Positions 538-60,108 of a stretch of 64,000 bases of DNA are shown piece by piece. Made by a program: the position numbers and the translations under genes. The notes beneath the pieces were generated by a model that had not been told where the DNA came from, ran no database searches, and saw nothing but the letters and a program-made list of their open reading frames with translations. Origin of the DNA: Comamonas serinivorans (GTDB lineage: Bacteria; Pseudomonadota; Gammaproteobacteria; Burkholderiales; Burkholderiaceae_C); contig NZ_CP021455.1 of assembly GCF_002158865.1 (NCBI RefSeq), positions 1,096,835-1,160,834 of the forward strand, in the 5' to 3' direction. Numbering within the stretch: the stretch's first letter is position 1; every line of letters begins with the position of its first letter.

Positions 538-541
538 TCAA

Positions 542-590
542 GGGTATGACTGTGCTTCCGTTGTTTCTACATCGGCAATGAGGCGATACT
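542..590. repeat. nested-palindrome repeat family, copy R0
   Basis: GGGTATGAC...TTCCGTT-GTTTCTAC-ATCGGCAA...GCGATACT. Between the rep stop and the GIY-YIG start. Confidence 0.7.
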
Positions 591-594
591 GCGC

Positions 595-2906: not shown

Positions 2907-2930
2907 GGCGGCATCAGCAGGTTGTGATGG

Positions 2931-2980
2931 GGGTATGGGCGAGTTGTCGATTTTGTGTCATCGGAAATATGGCCATACCC
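2931..2980. repeat. nested-palindrome repeat family, copy R1
   Basis: GGGTATGGGC ... GTCGAT-TTTGTGTC-ATCGG ... GGCCATACCC. Between lemA and the M48 gene. Confidence 0.8.
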
Positions 2981-3122
2981 TGTAAAAAATGGGGTGAAGG
3001 CGTGCCTGGCCGCCGTCACCGGTGCAGGGCCTGGGTGTGTGCCGGGTCCGGCGGAGTCAACGCGTCACCGGCCAGGCGGCCCTGCAGCGTGTGGACCCGC
3101 GCTGCGCAACGGCGCCGCGCCC

Positions 3123-4406: not shown

Positions 4407-4459
4407 GGGGGTATGCGCCCATTTCCGTTTAAAGAAAAACGCAAGTGGATGCATACCCC
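4407..4459. repeat. nested-palindrome repeat family, copy R2
   Basis: GGGGGTATGC ... CCATTTCCGTTT-AAAGAAA-AACGCAAGTGG ... GCATACCCC. Confidence 0.8.
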
Positions 4460-4617
4460 ATGCATTGCGTGCGGATAAAGGGTGGCGCCATGCCGTCATG
4501 GCCAGCCATCCCGTCCCGGTGCCTCGGCCCCGCGCATGGGCTCAGGCACTTGGCCAGACGCCGACCCTACGGGCCGCCCGCCAACCGCAGACCCCCCATC
4601 GAGGTGGGTGCCGCCGG

Positions 4618-6603
4618 TCACTCGGGTGAGGGCGTCGGATCAGGGTGCCGCCTGCAGCCGTCAGTCGCCGGCTGCAACAGGTCTTGCACGCGTGCGCGCA
4701 TGGTCTCCAGCGTCTGCGCTTCGGGGGGCATGGCCTCGCCCACGCTCAGGCCCACCGGGCTGAAGGTCCCACGCCGGAATGGCTTGGTCATGGCGCCCGT
4801 GGGTTCGATGCGCGAGAAGTAGCTGCCCCAGAGGTTGGTCAGCGCCATGGGCACCACGGGCACGCTCAGGCCGTCGGCGCGCGCCTGCTCCAGGATCTTC
4901 AGCACCCCGCTCTTGAACGCACCCAGCTCGCCGTCGCGCGTGATGGCGCCTTCGGGGAAGATGGCCAGCAGCTCGCCTTCGCGCAGCACCTGGGCGGCTT
5001 CGACGAAGGCGCGCTCGTAGGCCGCGGGGTCGTCGCGTGCGGGGGCGATGGGGATGGCCTTGGCGAGCTTGAACAGCCAGCCCAGCACGGGCACCTTGAA
5101 GATCTGGTGGTCCATGATGAAGCGGATGGGCCGCGGGCTGGCCGCCATCAGCAGCACGGCGTCGATGAAGCTGACGTGGTTGGCGATGAGCACGGCCGGA
5201 CCGTCGGCCGGGATGTGGTCACGCCCGGTGATGCGGAAGCGGTACACCAGCTTGGTGAGCACCCAGGCGTGAAAGCGCAGCCAGTACTCGGGCACCAGGA
5301 AGAAGATGTAGGCCGCCACCAGCGCATTGGCGATGCCGGTGAACAGGAAGATCTGCGGGATGGAGAAGCCGGCCTGCAGCAGCGCGCCCGCGATCACGGC
5401 CGAGGCGATCATGAACAGCGCGTTGAGGATGTTGTTGGCCGCGATGATGCGCGCGCGGTGCGAGGGCCGGGCGCGCAGCTGGATGAGCGCGTACATGGGC
5501 ACGCTGAACAGGCCGGTGAACATCGACATCAGGCCCAGGTCGGCCATCACGCGCCAGTGCGCGCCCTGTTGCAGAAAGCCGCCCACGTCGAACAGGCCAC
5601 TGGCGGGCGGCGCGGGCAGGCTGCGCGTGGCGAAGAACAGGTCGATGGCGAACACCGTCATGCCGATGGCGCCCACGGGCACCAGCCCGATCTCGACCTG
5701 GTGGCCCGACAGCTTTTCGCACAGCAGCGCCCCCACGCCGATGCCGACCGAGAACACGGCCAGCAGCAGCGAGGCGACGTGGGCGTCGCAGTGCAGCACT
5801 TCTTTGGCAAAGGCCGGAAACTGGCTGAGGAACACAGCGCCGAAGAACCACATCCACGAGATGCCCAGCAGCGAGCGGAACACGGCCAGCTGCTCGTGCG
5901 CCAGGCGCAGGTTGCGCCAGGTTTCGGTCACAGGGTTCCAGTTCACCTGCAAGCCGGGGTCGGTGGCCGGCGACACAGGGATGAACTGCGCCGCAAGCCG
6001 CCCCAGCAGGGCCAGCACCACGCACGAGATGCCCACCCATTCGGGCCCCACCTGCGGCACCACCACCAGCACCCCGCCCACCAGCTGGCCCAGCAAGATG
6101 GCGACGAAGGTGCCCATTTCGACCATGCCGTTGCCGCCCGTCAGTTCGCGCTCGGACAGGTGCTGCGGCAGGTAGGCGAACTTCACCGGGCCGAACAGGG
6201 TGGAGTGCAGGCCCATGAGGAAGGTGCACAGCAGCAGCACCGGCACGTTGGCGCTGAAGAAGCCCCAGGCCGCCAGGGCCATGATGGCCACCTCCAGCCA
6301 TTTGACGAAGCGGATCAGCGCGCGCTTTTCCAGCTTGTCGGCCAGCTGGCCGCTGGTGGCCGAGAACACCAGATAGGGCAGGATGAACAGCGCGCCGATC
6401 ACCAGGCCCGCCATGTCGGCCGGCAGCCAGCTCACCTGCAGCATGTAGGTCACCATCACGGTGAACGCGAACTTGAAGAGGTTGTCGTTCGCGGCGCCGG
6501 CAAACTGGGTCCAAAAAAACGGCGCAAAGCGGCGCTGGCCCAGCAAGGCGAACTGCCCGGAGGGCGCTTGGCCGGCCTGGGCCTGGCGGGTCGATTCGGT
6601 CAT
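4618..6603 (-). CDS. MFS lysophospholipid transporter fused to acyltransferase (LplT/Aas-like)
   Basis: Twelve-TM MFS body followed by a PlsC-type acyltransferase domain with NHVSFIDAVLL (HX4D) and FPEGAITRDG. Start trimmed to MTESTRQ. Confidence 0.8.
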   Translation of the reverse strand: MTESTRQAQAGQAPSGQFALLGQRRFAPFFWTQFAGAANDNLFKFAFTVMVTYMLQVSWLPADMAGLVIGALFILPYLVFSATSGQLADKLEKRALIRFVKWLEVAIMALAAWGFFSANVPVLLLCTFLMGLHSTLFGPVKFAYLPQHLSERELTGGNGMVEMGTFVAILLGQLVGGVLVVVPQVGPEWVGISCVVLALLGRLAAQFIPVSPATDPGLQVNWNPVTETWRNLRLAHEQLAVFRSLLGISWMWFFGAVFLSQFPAFAKEVLHCDAHVASLLLAVFSVGIGVGALLCEKLSGHQVEIGLVPVGAIGMTVFAIDLFFATRSLPAPPASGLFDVGGFLQQGAHWRVMADLGLMSMFTGLFSVPMYALIQLRARPSHRARIIAANNILNALFMIASAVIAGALLQAGFSIPQIFLFTGIANALVAAYIFFLVPEYWLRFHAWVLTKLVYRFRITGRDHIPADGPAVLIANHVSFIDAVLLMAASPRPIRFIMDHQIFKVPVLGWLFKLAKAIPIAPARDDPAAYERAFVEAAQVLREGELLAIFPEGAITRDGELGAFKSGVLKILEQARADGLSVPVVPMALTNLWGSYFSRIEPTGAMTKPFRRGTFSPVGLSVGEAMPPEAQTLETMRARVQDLLQPATDGCRRHPDPTPSPE

Positions 6604-6901: not shown

Positions 6902-7753
6902 TCAGCGCCGCCGCATGGCCCAGCCGATGGGCACCACCGCCAGCGCCGCCACCGCGTGCTTGAGGCTGTGGCCGGCCACCCAGCCCTGGGTCAGCTCGAA
7001 CACGGCGTGGTCGCCCAGCTCCAGCACCTTGGCGGCGATGTAGGCCAGCACCACCCAAAGCCAGCGCACCCCCAGGCCGTCCGGCCGGTTGGGACTCAGG
7101 CCCAGACCCACCAGCAGCGCCAAGCCGGCGCCTTGCACCAGCGCCCAGGGCGTCATGTTGCCCACCTGCCAAGCCCACAGGGCCGCGCTGGCCGAGGCCA
7201 GCAGCAGCGGCAGCGGCAGCGCGCGACCCAGGCGGGGGCTCACGCGGTCGGCCACAGCCAGGCCGATCACGCCGGCAAAGGCCAGCGACATGCCGAGCCG
7301 GTCCACGGCCAGGCCCGCATCGCCGGGCGCCCAGTGGTAGACGCTGGAGCCCGCGGCCGTGGCGATCAGGCCCAGCACCACCCATCGCACGAGCACCATG
7401 CAAGTATGGTCGGCCATTCGATCATGGATGAAGGTAGATGAACCGATACCCGATGAAAAGATGGCGGCTCGCCGCCACAGCCACAGCGCCGCCAGGACGA
7501 ACGGTGCGTTGCTGAGCACGTCCAGGGCGTGCGGCAGTGCGCCCCAGGCGCGCTGGTCGGCGAAGTCGTGGTAGCCGGCGGGCAAGGGTGCGGCGGGCAG
7601 GCCGGCGGCCAGCACCACGGCGGCCAGCAAGGCCAGCAGCACGAGCCACTCGGCGCGGCGCAAGGGACCGAGGGCAGGGTGGGCGGGTTGGACGACGCCG
7701 GCCACGCCGGTAGACGGGGACGGGCGAGCGGCGGGCGGGCGAGCGTGTGGCAT
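6902..7753 (-). CDS. polytopic membrane protein, ceramidase (alkaline phytoceramidase)-like family
   Basis: YHDFADQR..G.P...DVLSN motif, several TM segments and SSVYHW/DRLGM motifs. Carries repeat copy R3 in frame (see findings). Confidence 0.5.
   Translation of the reverse strand: MPHARPPAARPSPSTGVAGVVQPAHPALGPLRRAEWLVLLALLAAVVLAAGLPAAPLPAGYHDFADQRAWGALPHALDVLSNAPFVLAALWLWRRAAIFSSGIGSSTFIHDRMADHTCMVLVRWVVLGLIATAAGSSVYHWAPGDAGLAVDRLGMSLAFAGVIGLAVADRVSPRLGRALPLPLLLASASAALWAWQVGNMTPWALVQGAGLALLVGLGLSPNRPDGLGVRWLWVVLAYIAAKVLELGDHAVFELTQGWVAGHSLKHAVAALAVVPIGWAMRRR
7403..7451. repeat. nested-palindrome repeat family, copy R3 (inside CDS 6902..7753)
   Basis: AGTATGG ... TTCGATCATGGATGAA ... CCGATACCC. 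Translated in frame as SGIGSSTFIHDRMADHTC. Locally AT-rich third positions. Confidence 0.6.
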
Positions 7754-8633: not shown

Positions 8634-8771
8634 TCGGGGCGCGGCCCTGGACCCGGGTGTGGACCATCCCGCCGGCGGGGGAAGTCGGGCGCCGGGCTGA
8701 CGACCTGCGGGTGCCGCACATCCCGGCAAGGGTGTGAGGTCGCTGCACGGGCCTAGGGTGGAGATGTCGTG

Positions 8772-8820
8772 CAGTATGGGGCGGTCTCCGGTGCAAAGAA
8801 AACGACAGTTGGCGAATACG
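8772..8820. repeat. nested-palindrome repeat family, copy R4 (degenerate)
   Basis: CAGTATGGGG ... CCGGT-GCAAAGAA-AACGA ... CGAATACG. Confidence 0.4.
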
Positions 8821-8868
8821 GGGCGAGTGCCGATGAAGCAATCGTGACGGTGGTGGCCCGCAGCTGAG

Positions 8869-10220: not shown

Positions 10221-10272
10221 GCAGTATGCATGGCTTGCCGTTTGAAGATGAACGGCAATGGCTGCATACTGC
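10221..10272. repeat. nested-palindrome repeat family, copy R5
   Basis: GCAGTATGCA / TGCATACTGC perfect 10-bp outer arms. Inner TTGCCGTT-TGAAGATG-AACGGCAA. Confidence 0.9.
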
Positions 10273-10293
10273 ACACTGAATGCAGGAGACACC

Positions 10294-11929: not shown

Positions 11930-12991
11930 TCAGACAGGGGTGCCTGGCGGCCGCTCGCCCTGGCCGTGTGCAGCCTGGGTTGGCGGGATGTGCTGGGCAT
12001 CGGCGGGGGAGTTTGCGCCAGTTTCCGATGATGTTTCGGGTTCATTGACGTAATACTGCTGGCCGCCACCCGACTCGTAGTAAATGCGTGTGAGCAGCTC
12101 GCCAATCAGGCCGGCGGCGACGAAGGTGATGCCCATCAGCACCAGCATCACGCCGACGATGAGCAGCGGGCGCCCGCCGATGTCGTGACCGAACAGCTTG
12201 AGGAGGAACAGCCAGGCCAGGATGAGGAAACCCGGCGTGGCCAGCCACAGGCCCACGCCCCCGAAGGCGTGCAGCGGGCGCTGGCGGTAGCGCATCAGGA
12301 AGACCATGAGGATCAGGTCCAGGATGACGCGGAAGGTGCGGTCGATGCCGTACTTGGACACGCCGCGTGTGCGGGCGTGGTGGCGCACGGGCACCTCGGT
12401 GATGCGGGCGCCGGCATCGCGCGCCAGCGATGGGATGAAGCGGTGCAGTTCGCCATAAAGGTGGATGCGGTCGATGATGTGCCGCCGGTAGGCCTTGAGC
12501 GCGCAGCCATAGTCGTGCAGCTGCACGCCGGTGGCCTGGGAGATCAGGCGGTTGGCGATTTTGGACGGCAGCTTGCGCGAGAGCGCCGCGTCCTGCCGGT
12601 CCTTGCGCCAGCCCGAGACCATGTCCACGTCGGGATCGGTCTCGAGCCGGTTCAGCAGCAGCGGGATGTCGTCGGGCTCGTTCTGCAGGTCGGCATCCAG
12701 CGTGACCACGTAGCGGCCGCGCACGCGGTCGAAGCCCGCCTGCAGGCCGCTGGACTGGCCGTAGTTGCGGGCCAGCAGCACGGGGCGCAGCCAGGGCCGC
12801 GTGCGGGCCAGCTCGAGCAGCAGCTTGCCGCTGCCGTCGCGGGAGCCGTCGTCCACGGCAATCAGCTCGAACGACAGCGGCTGGCTGCGCATGGCGGCCT
12901 CGATGCGCGTGACCAGGTCGGGCAGGTTGTCCACCTCGTTGTAGATGGGGACGACGATGGAGACCTCAGGGGGTGTGGAAATGGGCTGCAT
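11930..12991 (-). CDS. GT2 polyprenyl-phosphate glycosyltransferase (ArnC/RgtE-like)
   Basis: SIVVPIYNE...AVDDGSRDGS...LARNYGQ...TLDADLQNEP followed by two C-terminal TM segments. The C-terminal tail is read through repeat copy R6. Confidence 0.85.
   Translation of the reverse strand: MQPISTPPEVSIVVPIYNEVDNLPDLVTRIEAAMRSQPLSFELIAVDDGSRDGSGKLLLELARTRPWLRPVLLARNYGQSSGLQAGFDRVRGRYVVTLDADLQNEPDDIPLLLNRLETDPDVDMVSGWRKDRQDAALSRKLPSKIANRLISQATGVQLHDYGCALKAYRRHIIDRIHLYGELHRFIPSLARDAGARITEVPVRHHARTRGVSKYGIDRTFRVILDLILMVFLMRYRQRPLHAFGGVGLWLATPGFLILAWLFLLKLFGHDIGGRPLLIVGVMLVLMGITFVAAGLIGELLTRIYYESGGGQQYYVNEPETSSETGANSPADAQHIPPTQAAHGQGERPPGTPV
12008..12059. repeat. nested-palindrome repeat family, copy R6 (in the 3' end of the GT2 gene)
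   Basis: GGAGTTTGC ... TTTCCGATGA-TGTT-TCGGG ... GTAATACTGC. The minus strand resembles R13 (TCATCGGAAA.TGGC.GCA.ACTCC). Confidence 0.6.
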
Positions 12992-13159: not shown

Positions 13160-14752
13160 ATGCCCCGTTCGCCCGCTGCTTCCTCAGACGCCGCCCGTCC
13201 GTCCCCTGCGCAGCGGCCCTGGCTGCAAGCCCTGTACGACAACCCCTGGCCCTGGCTGCTGGCCTTTTTGCTGGCCCACGTGGTGTCGCGCGGCGTGATC
13301 TCAACCGGCATGAAATGGGACGAGTCCGAGCAGATTCTCTGGTCGCAGCAGCTGGCCCTGGGCTATGGCGCGCAGCCGCCGCTCTACACCTGGCTGCAGT
13401 GGGCCGTGATCCAGGTGCTGGGGCCGTCGGTGCTGGCGCTGGCGCTGGTCAAGCACGCGGCCATTGGCCTGACCTATGTGCTGGCCTGGCTGGCCGCGCG
13501 GCAGCTGCTCACGGCGCGCGGTGCCTTCTGGGTCGCCAGCGGGCTGCTGCTGATGCCGCCTTTCGGCTGGAACGCGGTGCGCGACCTGACCCACACCGTG
13601 CTCGTCACGGCGATGGCGCTGGGCCTGTGCGGGGCCGTGCTGCGCCTGGTGCAGGCGCCCAGACCGGGCCACTACGCGCTGGTGGGCCTGTTCTGCGGCC
13701 TGGGCATGATGGCCAAGTACAGCTTTGCCCTGAGCATCGGCGCGTTCTTCGTCGCCTGCCTCACGGTGCCGCAGGCGCGGCGCGCCCTGTTTCAGCGCGG
13801 CTGGTGGCTGGCGCCGCTGGTGGGCCTGCTGATCTTCGCGCCCAACGGCTGGTGGGTGCTGAACCATTGGCACGAGGCCACGGCGGCCACCCTGGACAAG
13901 ATGGAGATCTCGCAGCAGGTGTCGGTCTTCACCGGCGCCGCGAACCTGCTGCAGATCACGGCGTCCACGTTGCTGCTGTGGGCCCTGGTGGTGGTGCTGG
14001 CCTTTCGCGGCCAGCTGCGCGCGCCCTTGCCCGCCGACGCCGATGCCCGCTGGCCCTGGCGCAGCTGGGCCTGGCCGCTGCTGGGGCGCTACCTGCTGTT
14101 CGTCGGCCTGGCCATGGTGGCCATGGTCGTGCTGGGCGATGTGAGCAACTTCAAGGAGCGCTGGCTGCTGCCCCTGGTGGCCGTGGTGCCGTTGGCGTTC
14201 TTCGTCTGGCGCCCGTCGCTGCAGGCCGACGACAACCCGCGCGGCGGCCTGTACACCGGGGCGGTGCTGGTGTTCGCGCTGATCTTCTTCGCCATGGCGA
14301 CGGCGCGGCCCTGGGTGGCCGGTGCACGCAACCAGGACAAGCCCGGCGAGGCCGACGAGCTGACTTTTCCGGTGCCCGAGCTGGCGGCCCGGCTGCGCCA
14401 GGCGGGCTACGACGGGCGTGGCGACATCGTGGGCGCCGACCACATGCTGGCGGCCATGATGCGGTCCGAGTTTCCCCAGGTGCAGGCGCGCGGCTGCGCG
14501 CCTTTGCCAGGTCGCACGCCGGCGGCCTGCGTGGCCCAGGCCCTGCAGCAGGCGCGTGCCACAGGGCGGGGCCTGCTGCTGGTGTCGCGTGCCCGTGACG
14601 CGGGCTGGTGGGCCGCAGTATTGCCCCAGACTGGTTACAAAGAGTACGAGAGCATGGCCATACCTTCTTCCAAAATGCCTGTTGACGCGGCACCGATGCC
14701 GTTCCATTTCGTGTGGGTGCCCCCGCAGACCGTGCCGGGGGCGCAGCCATGA
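13160..14752 (+). CDS. ArnT/PMT-like (GT39/GT83) lipid-linked sugar transferase
   Basis: Polytopic protein starting [26 protein letters not shown]. Divergent from the GT2 gene. The first 325 aa of the 12185..14752 ORF are antisense to the GT2 gene and were trimmed. Confidence 0.75.
14615..14664. repeat. nested-palindrome repeat family, copy R7 (in the 3' end of the ArnT-like gene)
   Basis: GCAGTATTG ... GGCCATACC outer arms with a degenerate interior. A partial inner-arm-like GATGCCGTTCCATTTCG follows. Confidence 0.5.
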
Positions 14753-15768
14753 GCACGGTGCTGGTCACCGGCGTGGCGGGCTTCATCGGCATGCATTGCG
14801 CGCGCGAGCTGCTGGGCCAGGGCCACCAGGTCGTGGGCATCGACAACCTCAACGCCTACTACGAGGTCTCGCTCAAGCAAGCGCGGCTGGCCCAGCTGCA
14901 GGCGCACCCGCATGCCGCGAACTTCCGCTTCGAGCGGCTGGACGTGGCCGACCGCGACGGCATGGCCCGGTTGTTCGACGCCACGCGCCCCACGCGCGTG
15001 CTGCACCTGGCCGCCCAGGCCGGCGTGCGCTACTCCATCGACCAGCCCGACGACTACACCGACGCCAACCTGCTGGGCTTTGGCAACGTGCTGCAGAACG
15101 GCCGCCGCCACGCCGTGCAGCACCTGGTGTATGCCAGCAGCTCCAGCGTCTACGGCGGCAACGCCAAGATGCCCTATGCCGAGCGCGATGCCGTCGACCA
15201 CCCCATCAGCTACTACGCGGCCACCAAGAAGGCCAACGAGCTGATGGCGCACACCTACGCCCACCTTTACGGCATGCCGACGACGGGCTTGCGCTTCTTC
15301 ACCGTCTATGGGCCCTGGGGCCGGCCCGACATGGCCTTGTTCAAGTTCACGCGCGCCATGCTGGCGGGCGAGGCCATCGACGTCTACGGCCAGGGCCAGC
15401 TGGTGCGCGACTTCACCTTCATCGACGACATCGTCCAGGGGGTGCTGCGCGTGCTGGACAAACCCGCCACGCCCGATGCCCAGTACGACGCCATGGTGCC
15501 CAATCCGGGAACGAGCACGGCCCCATACCGCATCTTCAACATCGGCAACAGCCAGCCCACGGTGCTGATGGACTACATCGCCGCCATCGAGCGCGCCCTG
15601 GGCGTCACCGCCAACAAACGCATGCTGCCCATTCAGCCGGGCGACATGCAGGCCACTTCGGCCGACACGCGTGCCCTGCGCGACTGGGTCGGCTTCGAGC
15701 CCGGCACGCCCGTGACCGTCGGCGTGCAGCGCTTCGTGGATTGGTACAGGGAGTTTTTCCGCACATGA
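14749..15768 (+). CDS. UDP-glucuronate 4-epimerase (NAD-dependent epimerase family)
   Basis: [69 protein letters not shown] are hallmarks of the LpsL/Cap1J-type epimerases. ATGA overlap with the upstream gene. Confidence 0.8.
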
Positions 15769-17142: not shown

Positions 17143-17195
17143 CCAGTATGGGTTGGTTGCCGTTGATGAAAAAACGGCAATGAGCTTATACCCCC
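17143..17195. repeat. nested-palindrome repeat family, copy R8
   Basis: CCAGTATGGG ... TTGCCGTT-GATGAAAA-AACGGCAA ... CTTATACCCCC. Between ugd and the GIY-YIG/DUF4357 gene. Confidence 0.85.
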
Positions 17196-18518: not shown

Positions 18519-19406
18519 TCAGCGCCCGAAGGCGAACACGGCCGGGTCGTGCTTGCTGGGCAGGGCCACGGCATTCGCCTCGGCGTTCGCCCCGCTGGCG
18601 CGCAGCCAGCTGCGCCACTGGCTCACGCTGCCGCTGCGCGTGTGGCCGCCCGGCAGGGTCAGGCCCCAGCTCAGCGACAGCCGCGTGTTGGGCTGCAAGC
18701 CTTGCACCAGCGCCTGCAGCAGCGCGGCGTTGCGGAACGGGGTTTCGATGGCGATCTGCGTTTGCCCGGTTTTGAGCGCGTGCGCCTCCAGCTGCTTGAT
18801 GCGCGTGCTGCGTTGGCTGGCGTCCTGCGGCAGGTAGCCGATGAAGGCAAAGCTCTGCCCGTTCAGGCCGCTGGCGGCCAGCGCCAGCAGCAGCGACACC
18901 GGGCCGGGCAGGACGACCACGGGCACGCCCAGGGCATGTGCGGCCCGCACCACGGCGCTGCCGGGGTCGGCAATCGCGGGCATGCCGGCCTCGCTGATCA
19001 GGCCCACGTCCAGGCCTTGCTGGGTGGGGGCCAGCCAGGCGCGGGCCGCGGCCTCGGTCTGGCGGCCGGCCTCGTGGGTGCCGTCGTGGTCGCCCTGCTT
19101 GTGCGCGGCGCGCGGCAGTTCGCTGATCTGCATCTGCTGCAGCGGCACGGCCAGCGGGCAGACCTCGCCGATGCGTTTGAGCACGGCCCGGGCCGTCTTG
19201 GCGTTTTCGCACACCCAGTGCGTGATCTGCGAGGCGGTGTGCAGCACGCCGTGGGGCAGCACCTCGGTGATGGGCACACCCGCTTCGCAGCCGAAGTCCA
19301 GCGGCGCCGGCACCAGCACCAGGCGCCCCGGCGCACGCGGGCTTGGTTGCTCGCTGGGGGATGAAGAAACTTCGGCAGTATCGGGATTTTCCGTTGAGTG
19401 CGTCAT
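18519..19406 (-). CDS. SAM-dependent methyltransferase, tetrapyrrole-methylase (RsmI-like) superfamily
   Basis: GLISEAGMPAIADPG...VVVLPGPVSLLLALAASGL...F.F.GYLP. Lies immediately downstream of maf. The annotated start codon and first ~11 codons lie inside repeat copy R9, so the start is uncertain. Confidence 0.65.
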   Translation of the reverse strand: MTHSTENPDTAEVSSSPSEQPSPRAPGRLVLVPAPLDFGCEAGVPITEVLPHGVLHTASQITHWVCENAKTARAVLKRIGEVCPLAVPLQQMQISELPRAAHKQGDHDGTHEAGRQTEAAARAWLAPTQQGLDVGLISEAGMPAIADPGSAVVRAAHALGVPVVVLPGPVSLLLALAASGLNGQSFAFIGYLPQDASQRSTRIKQLEAHALKTGQTQIAIETPFRNAALLQALVQGLQPNTRLSLSWGLTLPGGHTRSGSVSQWRSWLRASGANAEANAVALPSKHDPAVFAFGR

Positions 19407-19426
19407 CGGTAATGCTAGATACTGGG
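19374..19426. repeat. nested-palindrome repeat family, copy R9
   Basis: GGCAGTATCGGG ... TTTTCCGTT-GAGTGCGTC-ATCGGTAA ... CTAGATACTGGG. Fills the maf/methyltransferase junction. Confidence 0.75.
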
Positions 19427-23612: not shown

Positions 23613-23666
23613 GGGTAGTACGGGTCAATTCCCGTTGAAAATATAACGATAATGGATGCATACCCC
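23613..23666. repeat. nested-palindrome repeat family, copy R11
   Basis: GGGTAGTACGGG ... ATTCCCGTT-GAAAATAT-AACGATAAT ... GCATACCCC. Starts 1 nt after the hisD stop. Confidence 0.7.
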
Positions 23667-23964
23667 TTGATGATTTGCCTCTGAATGCCGTTTTGGCGTC
23701 ACAAGCCCGGATGTTCACAGGAGCGGCCTGTCGAAGCCGACGCCTGCTGGCGGGGTGTTCACGCCAACGTTGGGTGGGCCAGGCGCGCTGTCGGTCCTGG
23801 TGCCCGTGGCTGGGCGCGGGTTGCATGGCGCGGGTTGTCGTCGCCAGCCAGCTTGGGCCAGCGGCCCATTCACCCGCAGGGCGCGGGAGATGCGGGGCCG
23901 GGCCATCCGGCCCGGGCGCATCCGTTTTAGGCTTGTGCTTTCCCTGCTGCGACAAGGACTGGCC

Positions 23965-25444: not shown

Positions 25445-25496
25445 GAGGTATGAGGCTGTGTCCGTTTCAAGGTAAACGGACAGATGGTCATACTCG
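25445..25496. repeat. nested-palindrome repeat family, copy R12
   Basis: GAGGTATGAGG ... CTGTGTCCGTTT-CAAGGT-AAACGGACAG ... GGTCATACTCG. Confidence 0.85.
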
Positions 25497-25617
25497 GAAT
25501 CCGAACGTATGGTGGCCAGCATCTGATGACCGGGTTGGCGCGCGGGCAGGGCTGCAGCGACCGGGCCTCATGCGGTGGATGTACCCCCGCTACCCCGTCA
25601 ACCCGCGGGGCAGTGGG

Positions 25618-27512: not shown

Positions 27513-27730
27513 GGCGAGGTCCTTGGCAAAAACCGACGGCTGACGAGGGACGGGCACGGCGGGCATGCCGTGCGCGGGTTCACTGCCCGGCCAGCTTTGC
27601 AAGCCTGGGCGGCCGAGGCTGTGCTTTAGGCGTCAGCGCAGGCCGCAGATGCCGTGCCTGGCCGGTGGCGAACGCCCGCCTGCGGCCGCGGAGCGCGCGG
27701 CGGCCAGGCGGACTAAAATCACCGGCTTCG

Positions 27731-27847
27731 CACCAAGGAGCGCTGCAGTTGGCCCAGGCCTTGCCTGGCCGGGCCTGTCAGGCTTGGTGCGGAACGTGTC
27801 GCGCCGGCCACGCCTGCGCTGGCGCGTGGTGTCAACGGCGCTCACCT
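27731..27847 (+). promoter_or_regulatory. SAH (S-adenosylhomocysteine) riboswitch in the metH leader
   Basis: CCAAGGAGCGCTGC (27733-27746) ... CAGGCTTGG (27779-27787) ... CAACGGCGCTCACC (27833-27846) match the conserved SAH-element cores (AGGAGCGCUGC / CAGGCUCGG / AACGGCGCUCAC). P1 is CCAAG/CTTGG and extra hairpins occupy the variable positions. CTCACCTG (27841-27848) can pair with CAGGTGAG (27872-27879), which contains the metH RBS. Confidence 0.75.
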
Positions 27848-27883
27848 GTTGTGTTGCTTGTCGGTTTTTTGCAGGTGAGTGTG

Positions 27884-30652
<2,769 letters not shown>

Positions 30653-30657
30653 GGTGA

Positions 30658-30709
30658 GGAGTATGGAGTGTTTATCGATGATTCTTCATCGGAAATGGCT
30701 GCATACTCC
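30658..30709. repeat. nested-palindrome repeat family, copy R13
   Basis: GGAGTATGG ... TTTATCGATGA-TTCT-TCATCGGAAA ... GCATACTCC. Confidence 0.85.
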
Positions 30710-30722
30710 ATGTAGATGATGC

Positions 30723-34966: not shown

Positions 34967-35019
34967 GGGGTATGGTGTGAATGCCGTTTTCCATGAAACG
35001 GAAATGGCCTGATACTGCC
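34967..35019. repeat. nested-palindrome repeat family, copy R15
   Basis: GGGGTATGG ... TGCCGTTT-TCCATG-AAACGGAA ... CTGATACTGCC. Starts 2 nt after the rtcR stop. Confidence 0.85.
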
Positions 35020-36058: not shown

Positions 36059-36146
36059 GGGCCCAGGTCTGGGGTGGCGCAAAGCGAGCGCGTCGGACTT
36101 GAATCCGAAGGGTGCTGGTGCAAGTCCAGCCCCCAGACCTGGGCCC
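36059..36146 (+). ncRNA. tRNA-like / Y-RNA-like cloverleaf RNA 1
   Basis: Perfect 16-bp stem GGGCCCAGGTCTGGGG (36059-74) / CCCCAGACCTGGGCCC (36131-46). It encloses TG, D-like arm GCGC-AAAGCGA-GCGC, G, anticodon-like arm TCGGA-CTTGAA-TCCGA, AGGGT, and T-like arm GCTGG-TGCAAGT-CCAGC. There is no CCA end. Confidence 0.65.
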
Positions 36147-39710: not shown

Positions 39711-40454
39711 ATGCCTTTACGCATCGACGAAGCCATCACCCAGCTGGATCACGGCTGGCTCAGCCATTTGAAATCGCAGGGTTACGGCGGCGATGCCTTG
39801 CGCCAGGCGATCGACCTGGTGCTGTACGCCCAACAGCAGGCGGCGGCGCGCAACAGCGCCGAGTTCAAGGCCGCCATCGCGCGCGTCAACCACCTGGTGG
39901 GGGCGGGCATCGCGTGTGACAACAACGGCGACTACCTGTACACGGCCGAGTGGCGCGACCCGGCTTGCGCCGGGCTGGGCTTCGCCATCGAATACGCGGC
40001 CGACCCGGCCAGCTGGCGGGCCGAGTTCCGCATGCCCGGCTGCTGGCCGCACACCGTGGACAACCTCGACATCACCGACACCCGCGCTGTGGACCACGAC
40101 TTTGCGCTCTGGCTGGCGCGCGCCAGTGCCCGCCATTTCACGCACCTGATCGAACGCCAGCTGCCCGAAGGCGAAGCACTGCGCGCGCCCTGTACGGCGG
40201 CCGTGCGGGCCGGCACCTGGGCCGAATTCGTGTGCCTGCACCCACTGCAACCCGTGGCCCGCCTGGGGCACGAGCGGCTGGAGCAGGCCGCCTGGTCGGC
40301 CCAATACCCCAGTGCCGCCCAGCGCGAGTTGCAGGCCCGCTTCGATGTGCAGAGCGCCTTGCTGCTGCGCTTGATCGTGGTTCAGCAGGCAGCATGGGCT
40401 TGGCATGAAGAGTATGGCGACAATCGCGATGACGATTCAACGGGAAGGCATTGA
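39711..40454 (+). CDS. orphan protein (247 aa), no recognised domain
   Basis: ORF between the 965-aa gene and rtcA on the same strand. The last ~15 codons and the stop lie in repeat copy R16. Confidence 0.5.
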   Translation: MPLRIDEAITQLDHGWLSHLKSQGYGGDALRQAIDLVLYAQQQAAARNSAEFKAAIARVNHLVGAGIACDNNGDYLYTAEWRDPACAGLGFAIEYAADPASWRAEFRMPGCWPHTVDNLDITDTRAVDHDFALWLARASARHFTHLIERQLPEGEALRAPCTAAVRAGTWAEFVCLHPLQPVARLGHERLEQAAWSAQYPSAAQRELQARFDVQSALLLRLIVVQQAAWAWHEEYGDNRDDDSTGRH

Positions 40455-40460
40455 TACTCC
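40410..40460. repeat. nested-palindrome repeat family, copy R16
   Basis: GAGTATGGCG ... ATCGCGATGACGATTCAACGGGAA ... TTGATACTCC. Supplies the last codons and the stop of the 247-aa ORF. Confidence 0.65.
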
Positions 40461-40814
40461 ATTTGATGTGGCGCTTGCTGAGGGCTGCTTGCCCGACACC
40501 GGAAGGCTGGCGTCGACGCAGGGACATGACGCGTGGCCAGCGGTGCATGGGCTCGCCAGCCGCCCGCACAGCGCCCCCAACCCGCTGACTGGGCGTCCTG
40601 ATGCAGCAGGCCTGGCTCGACCTGCCCGTGCTCTTTCGCCTGCATGCGCAGGCGCGTGGCCAACAGGTGGCGCAGCCCGAGCGGGCCGATGGGGTGTTCG
40701 CCATCCAGGGCACGGCCAGCGCGCAGCCTCACACCGTCCGAGACGGACCGCATCCGGGCCGATTGCCTGTGAAGGCGGGCTTGCAAGGGGCGCTGCATGG
40801 ATCGCTGGCGCGCT

Positions 40815-43250: not shown

Positions 43251-43388
43251 GCGCCTGAACGGGCGTCGTTCGCGGGTTTTGGGGAGTGCGCCGGCACGCC
43301 GGATGCCGGGTGCTCAACGGGGCCTGCATCGCACGCCGCAGCGCCAGCGGTGCGTGTCGTGTCTGGACGAGGTTGATGGGTGTGTGAC

Positions 43389-43440
43389 GGGGTATTGGGT
43401 CAGCCCCGTTCATATATCAACGGCGAGTAAGCCATACCCC
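43389..43440. repeat. nested-palindrome repeat family, copy R17
   Basis: GGGGTATTGG ... GCCCCGTT-CATATATC-AACGGCGA ... GCCATACCCC. Confidence 0.85.
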
Positions 43441-46669: not shown

Positions 46670-46986
46670 CAGCGCGGCGGGCCTTGGCTGGCTCGGCCAG
46701 CGGGTGACTGGTTGGCGGCGGGGCTTTGTCCCTGACCGCGGGCACTCGACCTTGGCGCGCCGCCGTTCCCTCCACCCGTTCGCTTGTTCAGCGGTGCGCC
46801 ACAGCTGCCGGCGAACACGGTGTTGCCACCTCCGTCAAGGGCAGACTCACCGCCAACACCTCACAGCCCACACCAACCATCTGACCTGTGCAGCCCTTGG
46901 CCATCCGCCACCCGGTGGTTGACGAGCTGTCAGCGTTTGCAACCAGCCATGACACATGTGGGTGCAGTGTATGGCTTTAGGTGTGA

Positions 46987-47039
46987 CCAGTATGGGTTGA
47001 TTGTCGTTGTTCAAAAAACGGAAATGGCCGCATACTGGG
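46987..47039. repeat. nested-palindrome repeat family, copy R18
   Basis: CCAGTATGGG ... TTGTCGTT-GTTCAAAA-AACGGAAA ... GCATACTGGG. An extra half-arm GCAGTGTATGGC lies at ~46965. Confidence 0.85.
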
Positions 47040-49251: not shown

Positions 49252-49305
49252 GCCAGTATGGGGAAGATGCCGTTGTTAAAAAAACGGGAGGGGCTAGATA
49301 CTGCC
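49252..49305. repeat. nested-palindrome repeat family, copy R19
   Basis: GCCAGTATGGGG ... ATGCCGTT-GTTAAAAA-AACGGGAG ... CTAGATACTGCC. Confidence 0.85.
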
Positions 49306-54000: not shown

Positions 54001-54056
54001 GGAAGGCCTTTGGCGCGGGGCCGCTGCAGAAGCCGTGCTGCGCCGTTGTGGAGGAT

Positions 54057-54106
54057 GAGTATCAGCCCATTGCCGTTCATCAACAAACGGTGATGGGGTG
54101 ATACGG
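54057..54106. repeat. nested-palindrome repeat family, copy R21
   Basis: GAGTATCAGCCCA ... TTGCCGTT-CATCAACA-AACGGTGA ... TGGGGTGATACGG. Confidence 0.85.
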
Positions 54107-54127
54107 TCTGAAAATGGTTGAGGCCTG

Positions 54128-55706: not shown

Positions 55707-55758
55707 TGAGTATGGCCTCATTCCCGTTGTTCATTGAACGGGAACGAGGCCATACTCA
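55707..55758. repeat. nested-palindrome repeat family, copy R22 (most regular copy)
   Basis: TGAGTATGGCCTC / GAGGCCATACTCA perfect 13-bp outer arms. Inner TTCCCGTT-GTTCATTG-AACGGGAA is a perfect 8 bp. Confidence 0.9.
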
Positions 55759-55796
55759 TGTGCCATGATTCGCGCCACGCGTCAGCGCGCCGCTGC

Positions 55797-60055: not shown

Positions 60056-60108
60056 GCAGTATGGGTCAACTTCCGTTTGATTGACATCGGATATGCGGGT
60101 ATACCCAT
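60056..60108. repeat. nested-palindrome repeat family, copy R23
   Basis: GCAGTATGGGT ... CTTCCGTTT-GATTGAC-ATCGGATA ... GGGTATACCCAT. Confidence 0.65.

Follow-up and report, generated by a model that had tools for sequence, protein, structure and literature searches.

The stretch of Comamonas serinivorans DNA analysed here (the window, 64,000 nucleotides) contains a membrane-protein gene (6902..7753, minus strand; CCO03_04625) that carries, in frame, a decayed copy of a dispersed 53-nt palindromic repeat. This copy, R3 (7400..7453, minus strand), supplies 18 codons that are translated as SGIGSSTFIHDRMADHTC (residues 101-118), and the same element occupies the same codons in nine further orthologues. 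The insertion was very probably a single ancient in-frame event that was inherited vertically and has since decayed in C. serinivorans.

The repeat family has the consensus GGAGTATGG..ATT.CCGTT, an 8-nt A/T-rich loop, and AACGG.AAT..CCATACTCC, the whole element forming one inverted repeat. Its copies have about 50% G+C in a genome of 70% G+C and occur at a density of roughly one per 3 kb, mostly shortly 3' of stop codons. We found 15 clean 53-nt palindromes in the window (alignment A3), to which a covariance model added three. About 21 copies are intergenic, many of them 1-60 nt past stop codons; among the approximately 24 copies in the window, one clear and two doubtful ones lie within ORFs. 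The copies at 541..593, 17143..17195, 23615..23667, 34967..35019 and 60056..60108 follow a stop codon by 3, 7, 2, 1 and 41 nt, respectively, and those at 30658..30710, 49253..49305 and 54056..54108 lie between convergent genes. Close to the R3 host gene, one copy (4408..4460) lies 157 nt past the end of the adjacent MFS/acyltransferase gene and has an equivalent in the relative L087 (4990-5042). On the other side, the copy at 8771..8823 follows the end of the HTH_26 regulator gene by 137 nt, and copies are likewise found downstream of the orthologous regulator gene in L001 (2987-3039), L089 (547-599) and L087 (648-700). Further copies lie at 10221..10273, 46987..47039, 2930..2982 and 40409..40461, the last two sharing a CGAT inner-arm variant with the copy at 30658..30710. 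The copy at 19375..19426 has a 1-nt deletion, those at 25445..25497 and 43388..43440 were detected by the covariance model only, and the one at 55707..55759 is almost fully palindromic, with an RNA fold of -41.2 kcal/mol (z = -10.1).

The head of the element, GTAT(G), is found in 14 of the 15 aligned copies, the exception being the copy at 23615, which has GTAC. A spaced skeleton, GTAT-N11-CGNT-N8-ANNG-N11-ATAC, gives 33 matches at 17 window loci and none in 100 shuffles. MITEs are marked by terminal inverted repeats together with a target-site duplication; here, the flanks of the copies are enriched in TGA and GATG in direct orientation, and no fixed duplication was seen. At 15479-15531, a weak match of the position weight matrix (PWM) and the model was dismissed as chance; it falls within an epimerase segment that is conserved and has 68% G+C. 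At the gathering score, Rfam matched none of the family copies, and at E≤10 it returned on them only spurious miRNA-precursor hairpins far below threshold. The repeats have no T-run and were not flagged in a scan for intrinsic terminators, the total count of which was not above chance. With no Rfam match, and unlike the BRE repeat discussed below, the family appears to be undescribed.

R3 aligns to this family without gaps, in a register of 7401-7453 on the plus strand and 7400-7452 in the coding sense. Its codons, TCG GGT ATC GGT TCA TCT ACC TTC ATC CAT GAT CGA ATG GCC GAC CAT ACT TGC, are read without interruption in the minus-strand ORF 6902-7753. The left outer arm, GTATG (7404..7408, plus strand), falls in invariant family columns and appears on the coding strand as CAT AC(T), that is His-Thr. 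The right outer arm, GATAC (7445..7449, plus strand), appears as G GT ATC, that is Gly-Ile. Between them, the family alignment places the inner arms and loop, TCGAT-CATGGATG-AAGGT (7418..7435, plus strand). The left inner arm is the family's minority CGAT variant, and the palindrome is broken in the right one, where the C of A(A/T)CGG is lost. Nevertheless, R3 shares all invariant columns of the 16-sequence alignment, and 7404-7449 matches the skeleton exactly, on one strand only.

R3 went unreported by the structured covariance model R1, which was run with filters off and a limit of E≤10, and its RNA fold (-13 kcal/mol, z = -0.28) is no better than that of shuffles; the hairpin of about 21 potential pairs that most orthologous in-gene copies form is absent from it. 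Both observations would fit an ancestral loop sequence that merely resembles the repeat by chance. Because the covariance model missed R3, we turned to three other measures: a PWM without gaps, a second PWM corrected for composition and compared with shuffles, and the spaced skeleton. Against the family background, the composition-corrected PWM gave 13.5 bits, a score reached by none of 20,000 shuffles (maximum 3.4); with the genome background, R3 scored 19.8 bits against a noise floor of about -5. The 13 bases of the skeleton are matched exactly where no match is expected by chance. Moreover, the eight relatives searched with the repeat model, which was built from the window's intergenic copies only, score 19-44 bits at the 18 codons (best 44 bits, E about 1e-8), and the segment is absent from outgroups. 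Chance resemblance is thus negligibly probable, and R3 is a member of the family by descent that has decayed.

The element stands out in composition as well. Locally (7400-7474) G+C drops to 0.48-0.54, compared to 0.70-0.82 in the flanks; GC3 is 0.50 in the 18 codons versus 0.93 in the remainder of the gene, and the G+C of the element is 0.50 versus 0.75 in the gene core. A sequence-only reading of this DNA had described R3 as an in-frame repeat copy in a membrane-protein gene, with A/T-rich third codon positions set between flanks of normal high-GC codon usage, and both descriptions hold. It had also held that the same segment with normal codon bias in all orthologues would mark an ancestral sequence; we found the segment in the close orthologues, where its codon bias is abnormal and the repeat model matches it strongly.

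Counted from the ATG at 7753, the host ORF encodes 283 amino acids, whereas the NCBI start, a TTG at 7663, yields a protein of 253 amino acids (P0001). Its AlphaFold model displays eight helices, namely a confident 7-TM core (pLDDT 90.9) and an additional N-terminal helix. The core adopts the fold of the CREST superfamily, which includes alkaline ceramidase (ACER3), AdipoR, SID-1 and Myomaker, and it superimposes on solved members. The host protein also shares with alkaline ceramidases and other CREST proteins the metal-site motif S-x3-H ... D ... H-x3-H, whose residues S136, H140, D151, H262 and H266 are invariant among 27 sequences. The spacing S136-x3-H140, D151, H262-x3-H266 resembles that of the zinc site of ACER3 (S77, H81, D92, H217, H221), to which these residues are putatively equivalent. 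By contrast, the N-terminal helix sets the host protein apart from this group, as does the missing match to Pfam Ceramidase: PF05875 did not match the window protein, its homologue P0090 reached 25.4 bits, below the gathering cut-off of 32.5, and a PDB profile search returned weak SIDT2 matches only (E 0.06). We refer to the host protein as a putative CREST or alkaline-ceramidase-like membrane hydrolase.

The gene is intact. It retains 38 of 38 invariant columns of the family alignment, including the five catalytic-type residues of the motif. Because these residues are kept, the core GC3 is 0.93 and the 7-TM model is confident, the gene is not the very recent pseudogene that had been proposed as one of its possible fates. 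In the model, residues 103-108 of the insert form a loop and residues 109-118 the beginning of the next helix (109-141), which thus includes the second half of the insert and is predicted with a pLDDT of about 93. The loop connects model helices 2 and 3, the first two helices (TM1 and TM2) of the 7-TM core. The earlier placement of the insert between the first two TM segments therefore stands with respect to the 7-TM core and to residues 103-108; it needs amending in that these are helices 2 and 3 of the model and that residues 109-118 are helical. A predicted tryptic peptide, AAIFSSGIGSSTFIHDR (residues 99-115 of the 283-aa ORF), reaches into the element.

The same element is present in nine further orthologues for which DNA was obtained (L001, L002, L003, L084, L086, L087, L089, L090 and L133), all of it through exact-protein look-ups; in L133, we placed it by reading its sequence and by alignment rather than by its repeat-model score. 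In all ten genes, including that of the window, the insertion has identical position, phase and length (18 codons, gapless). The HTH, ceramidase-like and MFS-acyltransferase genes are syntenic in the nine relatives wherever the contig is long enough, and a neighbour-joining tree unites the genes that carry the insertion in one clade. Outside this clade, 15 more distant homologues in the alignment lack the segment, and 12 of the 15 have a uniform stretch of 32 residues between the anchors, compared to 42-57 residues in the clade. The repeat model likewise found no match in 122 outgroup orthologous loci from other Burkholderiales (504 kb + 193 kb = 697 kb); these came from profile searches of genome and metagenome contigs, and among the matches listed the genome contigs reached at most 51% identity. 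The alignment thus bears out the proposal that a palindromic element entered coding DNA with a length and phase by which the ORF was spared.

What it does not bear out is the implied recency. An insertion confined to C. serinivorans, either a fresh protein innovation or the mark of a very recent pseudogene, would account for 18 codons that resemble an unameliorated newcomer, with A/T-rich third positions between normal flanks. Yet the nine other genes that carry the element at the same codons share only 52-62% protein identity with the window protein (clade alignment), and their core identity of 59-64% excludes that the relatives' contigs are chimeras or C. serinivorans DNA. The window copy is, moreover, the most decayed of all, as its fold and its absence from the structured model's report indicate, and it resides in a gene with every invariant family residue and a confident fold. 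Because all close orthologues carry the element at the same codons and phase, the insertion predates their divergence, and synonymous sites between the insertion-bearing orthologues are already saturated. A recent insertion is accordingly very improbable.

The size of the gain also differs from the roughly 17 added residues that had been claimed. The window protein is only about 10 residues longer than the outgroup homologues in this stretch, and a net gain of 10 instead of 18 requires that either a later deletion occurred or part of the ancestral loop was replaced. Indeed, the loop upstream of the element is 6-7 codons shorter in the window than in its sister P0002, in line with a loop that was shortened later. 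No empty-site allele turned up inside the clade or immediately beyond it that would fix the insertion boundaries or a target-site duplication.

A single event has to be weighed against recurrent ones, in which the repeat inserted independently at a hot spot in different lineages, or new copies from elsewhere in the genome replaced or converted it again and again. Recurrence would account for the young-looking palindrome and the A/T-ending codons, and the conservation of synonymous sites is equally expected from a younger age. It would also fit the inner arms, for which the in-gene variant is that of its own lineage's intergenic copies: CCGC..GCGG in L001, L003, L084, L086, L087, L089 and L090, and CGTT..AACG in the window family, L002 and L133. 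However, this U-A to C-G change between lineages could arise in parallel under G+C pressure combined with a pairing constraint. Also in favour of recurrence, this loop took up unrelated insertions in P0078 and in an Ottowia MAG; when the Ottowia insert was compared by local BLAST with all loci obtained, no further copies emerged. Against recurrence, 10 of 10 genes agree in where the element lies, in its phase and in its length. We found no clade member without the insertion. The element diverges in step with the gene, so that element similarity follows the gene tree, and the in-gene copies share variable stem bases with each other that intergenic copies on the same contigs do not have. We therefore regard recurrent events as rather unlikely and retain a single ancient insertion with vertical inheritance.

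Upon comparison of the orthologues, we noticed that the element keeps its bases in places where the gene core does not. In the core, identical residues share their codon between lineages in 0.55-0.71 of cases, and 0.56-0.57 is expected at saturation. Within the element, A/T-ending codons survive in 32 of 46 pairwise comparisons, versus 44 of 301 in the core; because only about five independent lineages were sampled, mostly as short metagenomic contigs, these pairwise codon statistics are not independent and a Fisher P value is inexact. Outside the element, AGT, CAT and ACT make up 4%, 20% and 5% of their respective synonymous sets. Inside it, AGT is kept in all eight relatives of the codon alignment (the window has GGT there), and CAT and ACT are each kept in eight of nine genes. 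The sense-strand hairpin of the in-gene copies is significant in five of nine genes (z = -3.5 to -5.0), weak in L087 and L089, and not significant in the window or L002. Across the in-gene copies, 69.5% of cells pair, compared to 26-44% in slid controls. Because hairpin and invariant bases are kept at synonymous sites despite saturation elsewhere, these data suggest that the in-gene copy is under nucleotide-level constraint in most relatives. Retention of the codons could, in part, reflect selection for rare codons or mRNA structure instead of selection on the element itself.

Alternatively, conservation may concern the peptide, or a pause in translation, rather than the repeat, that is, the 18 residues or their rare-codon cluster may have gained a role in the protein, for example by providing a positive-inside arginine or by pausing translation after TM1 for membrane insertion. 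Among 13 clade proteins, Arg112 and Thr117 do not vary and His116 hardly does, the model confidently makes the insert's second half the start of a helix, and the rare codons are clustered directly after a TM helix. However, the protein identity of the element is low between lineages (17-33% for the window versus the others), and the bases that persist coincide exactly with the family's invariant GTAT/ATAC and CG/CG positions. A role of the peptide or of pausing also leaves the identical synonymous codons (AGT, CAT and ACT) and the retained base pairing unexplained, and we consider it unlikely. The reading that we prefer, constraint on the nucleotide sequence, may be extended: the hairpin may function as a nucleic acid inside the ORF too, making this a dual-coding segment under the same constraint as hundreds of intergenic copies, with their GTATG/CATAC and CG/CG invariants and their complementary variable stem. 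We put this forward as a tentative possibility. If it is true, the family-wide, lineage-specific switch of one inner base pair (CCGTT..AACGG to CCGC..GCGG) would reflect co-evolution with a trans-acting factor, for which candidates would be a domesticated RAYT-like enzyme or a protein that binds DNA or RNA, and the repeats would constitute a genome-wide system of cis-elements rather than selfish DNA.

These observations can be assembled into a probable history. In the common ancestor of C. serinivorans and a group of uncultured relatives, a 53-nt REP-like palindrome would have entered the DNA encoding the short loop between helices 2 and 3 of a membrane hydrolase. Its length and phase would have preserved the frame, and it would have been translated ever since as 18 residues (xGT ATx ... 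CAT ACT). The insertion may have been tolerated because the loop is predicted to be cytoplasmic, as judged by the positive-inside rule applied to the AlphaFold helices, and the putative zinc-site residues would then lie at the opposite membrane face. In most relatives, the in-gene copy appears to keep the hairpin and the family's invariant bases in the form of rare A/T-ending codons, seemingly under the nucleotide-level constraint that acts on intergenic copies. In the C. serinivorans lineage, this constraint would have lapsed; the palindrome is broken and the upstream loop shorter, and R3 would now behave like ordinary, if still A/T-biased, loop-coding sequence. Of this history, our data show that R3 belongs to the family, that it is read in frame, that the insertion is orthologous and old, that outgroups lack it and that the gene is intact; the membrane side of the loop, selection on the nucleotide sequence and a function of the family are inferred.

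R3 belongs to a known kind of element, the in-frame intragenic palindromic repeat represented by Rickettsia palindromic elements (RPEs) and intragenic ERIC sequences: the family has many extragenic copies along with a copy in an ORF, and an indel is found in an intact host gene. Homologous RPE copies at orthologous positions were reportedly described by Ogata and colleagues in 2002. RPEs are palindromic repeats found in frame in unrelated protein genes, translated and compatible with the fold, according to a summary in PMC10969869 of earlier work (Ogata et al. 2000 Science 290:347; 2002 Genome Res 12:808). As outlined there, homologous in-frame copies occur in several Rickettsia species, and the elements measure about 100-150 bp, comprise about 10 families and are nearly half intragenic, in the A/T-rich reduced genomes of obligate intracellular alpha-proteobacteria (PMC10969869). 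The Comamonas repeat shares with RPEs the in-frame insertion, the translation into an extra segment and the preserved fold. It differs in its length of 53 nt, in its host, a free-living beta-proteobacterium of 70% G+C, and in being overwhelmingly intergenic. We rejected R3 as an RPE proper on the 53-nt length, the Comamonas host and the absence of an Rfam match to the copies; by description it is set apart from the RPE families, with no apparent sequence similarity to them. Intragenic ERIC and other enterobacterial small mobile sequences are, in the same account, imperfect palindromes that are usually intergenic and transcribed, with occasional in-frame fusions that add peptides (Delihas 2007, PMC10969869). 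Like them, the Comamonas repeat is normally an intergenic small palindrome that is occasionally found in frame inside a gene; ERIC, however, is an enterobacterial family of about 127 bp, and in the Comamonas case the repeat is also retained in orthologues that diverged deeply and seems to be constrained at synonymous sites.

REP and REPIN elements are mobilised by RAYT (TnpA-REP) transposases, and their canonical head tetranucleotide is GT[AG]G. With them, the Comamonas repeat shares its nature as a high-copy, short, imperfect extragenic palindrome with a conserved head (GTAT(G)) and a variable complementary stem, the concentration at gene 3' ends, and the organisation into lineage-specific families. 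By contrast, its head is GTAT instead of GT[AG]G, and it is a single 53-nt hairpin rather than a doublet of shorter palindromes. The repeat is thus REP-like by its features, a description short of established REP/REPIN membership. In the Comamonadaceae and Bordetella, BRE, the beta-proteobacterial repeat element, is a usually intergenic repeat, some copies of which lie entirely within coding sequences (PMC3110155). BRE units measure about 90 bp, have 69% G+C and form VNTR-like tandem arrays, with at most 29 copies per genome (PMC3110155). We rejected BRE as the identity of the family, whose members are 53 nt long, have about 50% G+C and are dispersed as single copies; unlike BRE, the Comamonas repeat is also absent from the 122 other Burkholderiales loci. 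BRE is the only other report of a Comamonadaceae repeat that we found, and the Comamonas family differs from it and has no Rfam match.

R3 is a further example, of a known kind, of a dispersed palindromic repeat that has turned into a protein loop. It provides a clean and datable case beyond Rickettsia and the enterobacteria, in a free-living, high-G+C beta-proteobacterium in which the A/T-rich signature makes the element easily followed. The ten orthologues, at differing stages of decay, form a natural series for the assimilation of repeats into coding sequence, in which loops change in length, the hairpin is gradually lost, and codon usage ameliorates slowly if at all. The invariant bases kept at synonymous sites hint at sequence-specific selection on these abundant hairpins, which may persist even where the repeat is translated.

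The ceramidase-like membrane-protein gene shares its repeat with a family of which the window holds 15 clean copies of a 53-nt palindrome, as delimited by a repeat finder and a hand-curated alignment. The consensus reads GGAGTATGG-nnn-ATT-n-CCGTT-(8 A/T-rich nt)-AACGG-n-AAT-GG-nnnn-ATACTCC, with GTA, CG.T, A.CG and ATAC invariant, and it folds into a full-length hairpin of 21 pairs, in which 76% of cells are paired compared to 33-46% with slid partners and ten pairs have changed on both sides. A covariance model, R1, trained only on the 15 intergenic window copies, recovers all of them and adds copies at 43388, 25445 and 19375. Most copies lie immediately 3' of genes, several between convergent genes, and seven begin 1-8 nt past a stop codon (541, 17143, 20871, 23615, 30658 and 34967 are among the copies so placed). 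Spacing this close points either to insertion directed at gene ends or to a function at mRNA 3' ends. The copies, which lack a T-run, were not flagged by an intrinsic-terminator scan, and a search of the copies against Rfam matched no family. BRE, a ~90-bp, G+C-rich, tandem element of Bordetella and Comamonadaceae, is by its description a different element. In 13 of 17 clean copies, the 12 nt next to the plus-strand left end include a TGA, irrespective of gene orientation, and the flanks tested (for example 529-540, 2918-2929, 30646-30657 and 46975-46986) carry TGAT- or GATG-like strings on both sides, direct rather than inverted; the in-gene copy, R3, has CCATG as its left flank and TGAAAAGATGG as its right. 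Such strings could stem from a preferred target or from a target-site duplication that has degenerated.

R3 (7400-7453) aligns to the family without gaps and retains every invariant column of a 16-sequence alignment. It matches exactly a 13-base spaced skeleton that occurs 33 times across 17 loci and never in 100 shuffles, and its composition-corrected score with the family's position weight matrix (PWM) is 13.5 bits, against a maximum of 3.4 in 20,000 same-base shuffles. The structured model R1 did not report it at E<=10. Because its right inner arm, AAGG, replaces A(A/T)CGG, R3 fits the skeleton on one strand only; its RNA fold (-13 kcal/mol, z = -0.28) resembles that of shuffles, and the intergenic copies reach z = -3.7 to -10. 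R3 is a decayed family member. The host gene, a minus-strand ORF of 283 aa at 6902-7753, stays open throughout the repeat, whose 18 codons (TCG GGT ATC GGT TCA TCT ACC TTC ATC CAT GAT CGA ATG GCC GAC CAT ACT TGC) encode SGIGSSTFIHDRMADHTC. G+C drops to 0.48-0.54 locally versus 0.70-0.82 in both flanks, and GC3 (G+C at third codon positions) is 0.50 in these codons versus 0.93 elsewhere in the gene. The sequence-only reading had placed a repeat copy in frame inside this gene, and the skeleton, the PWM, the gapless alignment, the uninterrupted translation and the G+C dip bear this out. Directly upstream of R3 in the coding sense, a G+C-rich hairpin with a T-run (GTGGCGGCGAGCCGCCAT CTTTTCATCG) lies within the ORF at 7461-7478 (minus strand); the terminator scan called 11 such sites in all against 8.5 expected, which does not exceed chance, so this one may mean nothing.

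CCO03_04625 of Comamonas serinivorans, named 'alkaline phytoceramidase' in UniRef, matches the ORF product at 100% identity; the NCBI start, a TTG at 7663, yields 253 aa. The window protein keeps 38 of 38 invariant columns in a 27-sequence alignment, including S136-x3-H140, D151 and H262-x3-H266, residues whose spacing matches that of the ACER3 zinc site. A Pfam search with the protein recognised no family, and a Foldseek search with its model was uninformative. The AlphaFold2 model is confident (mean pLDDT 90.9, pTM 0.87), with pLDDT falling to 79 across residues 101-110. Within the insert, only residues 103-108 (IGSSTF) are non-helical, and residues 109-118 open the helix 109-141. Applied to the model helices, the positive-inside rule predicts that the insert loop (RR at 97-98, R112) is cytoplasmic, and the putative metal site would sit where helices 109-141, 145-170 and 261-282 end on the periplasmic side. 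Because the membrane would thus separate the loop from the active site, an insertion there should be easily tolerated. The sequence-only reading's view of an inserted, translated element within a loop stands. Its alternative, a very recent pseudogene, falls to the intact invariant columns and the confident model: the host gene is not a pseudogene.

A protein search returned 499 matches at E<=0.001. Among the best 120 of these, identity to the window protein is above 51% only for P0002-P0012 (full-length, 54-61%) and for P0013, which is truncated. All twelve are metagenomic, and they and no others in the alignment carry extra residues in the same loop, with the common pattern G-S-M-x-x-L-x-x-x-N-G-R-Q-x-A-H-T-A. 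DNA was obtained for nine of these relatives. Where contigs suffice, the synteny is that of the window: HTH_26 regulator, ceramidase-like gene, MFS/acyltransferase gene. R1 places the repeat within the gene in the eight relative loci searched (19-44 bits, E down to 2e-8); the ninth, L133, begins just upstream of the element, and its repeat was placed by sequence reading and alignment. A codon alignment of the window gene with eight full-length relatives places the element, free of gaps, at one shared set of 18 codons and in one phase (xGT ATx ... CAT ACT); the L133 element has this phase too and likewise aligns gaplessly.

The segment is missing from more distant homologues: the stretch between the N-x-P-F and G-L-x-x-T anchors measures exactly 32 residues in 12 of 15 of them versus 42-57 in the insertion-bearing clade. 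R1 was run over 504 kb around 80 orthologues from other Burkholderiales genomes and over 193 kb around 42 metagenomic orthologues, with no match in either set. On these searches, the repeat family is confined to this clade. One orthologue (P0019, from the MAG Ottowia sp. VLC_002) carries an unrelated 16-residue insert, …QNRLQRLSILRNKLLNWKQINAA…, in the same loop, coded by a 40% G+C stretch within a G+C-rich gene (L022 3124-3183); local BLAST of it against the loci compared here found no further copy. P0078 likewise has 16 additional residues there, and insertions seem to land, or to be tolerated, repeatedly in this loop.

In a neighbour-joining tree, the insertion-bearing proteins form one clade, with the window sister to P0002. 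Element similarity follows gene-core similarity: L001 and L089 have an element identity of 0.87 and a core identity of 0.92; for the window against the others, the figures are 0.35-0.48 and 0.67-0.72. Variable stem bases are common to the in-gene copies of related genes rather than shared with intergenic copies on the same contig. This is the pattern that vertical descent from one insertion predicts, and it speaks against both recurrent insertion and wholesale conversion at this loop. The orthologues share the element, so the recent age implied by the sequence-only reading does not hold. Its expected clean ~50-bp indel is likewise absent for the window itself, whose loop was probably shortened after insertion: loop length later drifted to 10-25 residues beyond the outgroup, and the window's is the shortest (+10), with 6-7 codons fewer than its sister P0002 upstream of the element.

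Codon usage points to constraint beyond the protein. Identical core residues use the same codon in 0.55-0.71 of cases across five roughly independent lineages, near the saturation expectation of 0.56-0.57 from codon usage; synonymous sites in the core are therefore essentially randomised. Core GC3 is 0.82-0.93 in all nine codon-alignment genes and element GC3 0.39-0.78. A/T-ending codons are kept in 32 of 46 pairwise comparisons in the element versus 44 of 301 in the core (pairs are not independent, making the P value only indicative). Outside the element, AGT, CAT and ACT account for 4%, 20% and 5% of use in their respective synonymous sets; within it, AGT is kept in 8 of 8 relatives (the window has GGT), and CAT and ACT each in 8 of 9 genes. 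These kept bases coincide exactly with the family's invariant GTAT(G) / (C)ATAC. The folds of five of nine in-gene copies beat those of shuffles significantly (z = -3.5 to -5.0), and pairing across ten in-gene copies fills 69.5% of cells versus 26-44% in slid controls. The inner arms of in-gene copies are the variant of their own lineage's intergenic copies (six from relatives): the larger subclade has CCGC..GCGG, and the window's family, L002 and L133 have CGTT..AACG. Relatives' intergenic copies (L001 2987-3039, 10077-10129 and 11769-11821; L087 648-700; L089 547-599) mostly have CCGC(T/C)..(A/G)GCGG arms, found in none of 17 window copies, which have CCGTT..AACGG or CGAT..ATCG. In this small sample, the difference amounts to a lineage-specific compensatory change that affects one base pair throughout the family. 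Four lineages also have an intergenic copy 3' of the neighbouring HTH gene, and two have one 3' of the MFS gene; because the family is dense, this is suggestive of positional conservation, not proof. In the relatives, the element looks constrained at the nucleotide level, and the in-gene copy would have been under the family's shared constraint until that constraint lapsed in C. serinivorans. On all this evidence, the family's behaviour is closer to that of a conserved cis-element than to that of freshly mobile selfish DNA.

Two further segments of the window resemble the repeat within ORFs. At 12008-12060, in the minus-strand ORF 11930-12991, a 47% G+C segment scoring 19.1 bits with the PWM is read in frame as part of the C-terminal tail (QQYYVNEPETSSETGANS) of a family-2 glycosyltransferase, whose Pfam domain ends far earlier, at residue 175. 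Possibly this is a second in-ORF copy, also decayed; R1 does not report it, and the tail may be partly native sequence. A weak match at 14614-14666 (PWM 14.4 bits; R1 8.6 bits, E 9.7), in the plus-strand ORF 13268-14752, falls within the final 46 codons of a PMT_2 / ArnT-like glycosyltransferase, in frame and just ahead of the next gene's overlapping start, and may be a decayed copy now read through by the ORF. Elsewhere, Rfam matched Bcj11 (Burkholderia RNA 11) at 5794-5915 (minus; 69 bits vs gathering score 49, full model covered), wholly within the coding region of the MFS/acyltransferase gene 4618-6603; instead of an sRNA, the Rfam model may have picked up conserved coding sequence there. 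A SAH riboswitch at 27729-27850 (plus; 48 bits vs gathering score 37), upstream of a 908-aa ORF starting at 27926, and a tRNA gene at 36068-36138 (plus) look like ordinary features.

In-frame insertion of palindromic repeats into genes is already known as a phenomenon, established for Rickettsia palindromic elements, intragenic ERIC and other small enterobacterial elements (PMC10969869). R3 works like the Rickettsia elements and intragenic ERIC, but its repeat lies outside those sequence families. The family is REP-like in copy number, location and architecture, but its head is GTAT instead of GT[AG]G, and it is apparently undescribed so far. The part worth following is the deep conservation of a translated hairpin, apparently at synonymous sites too.
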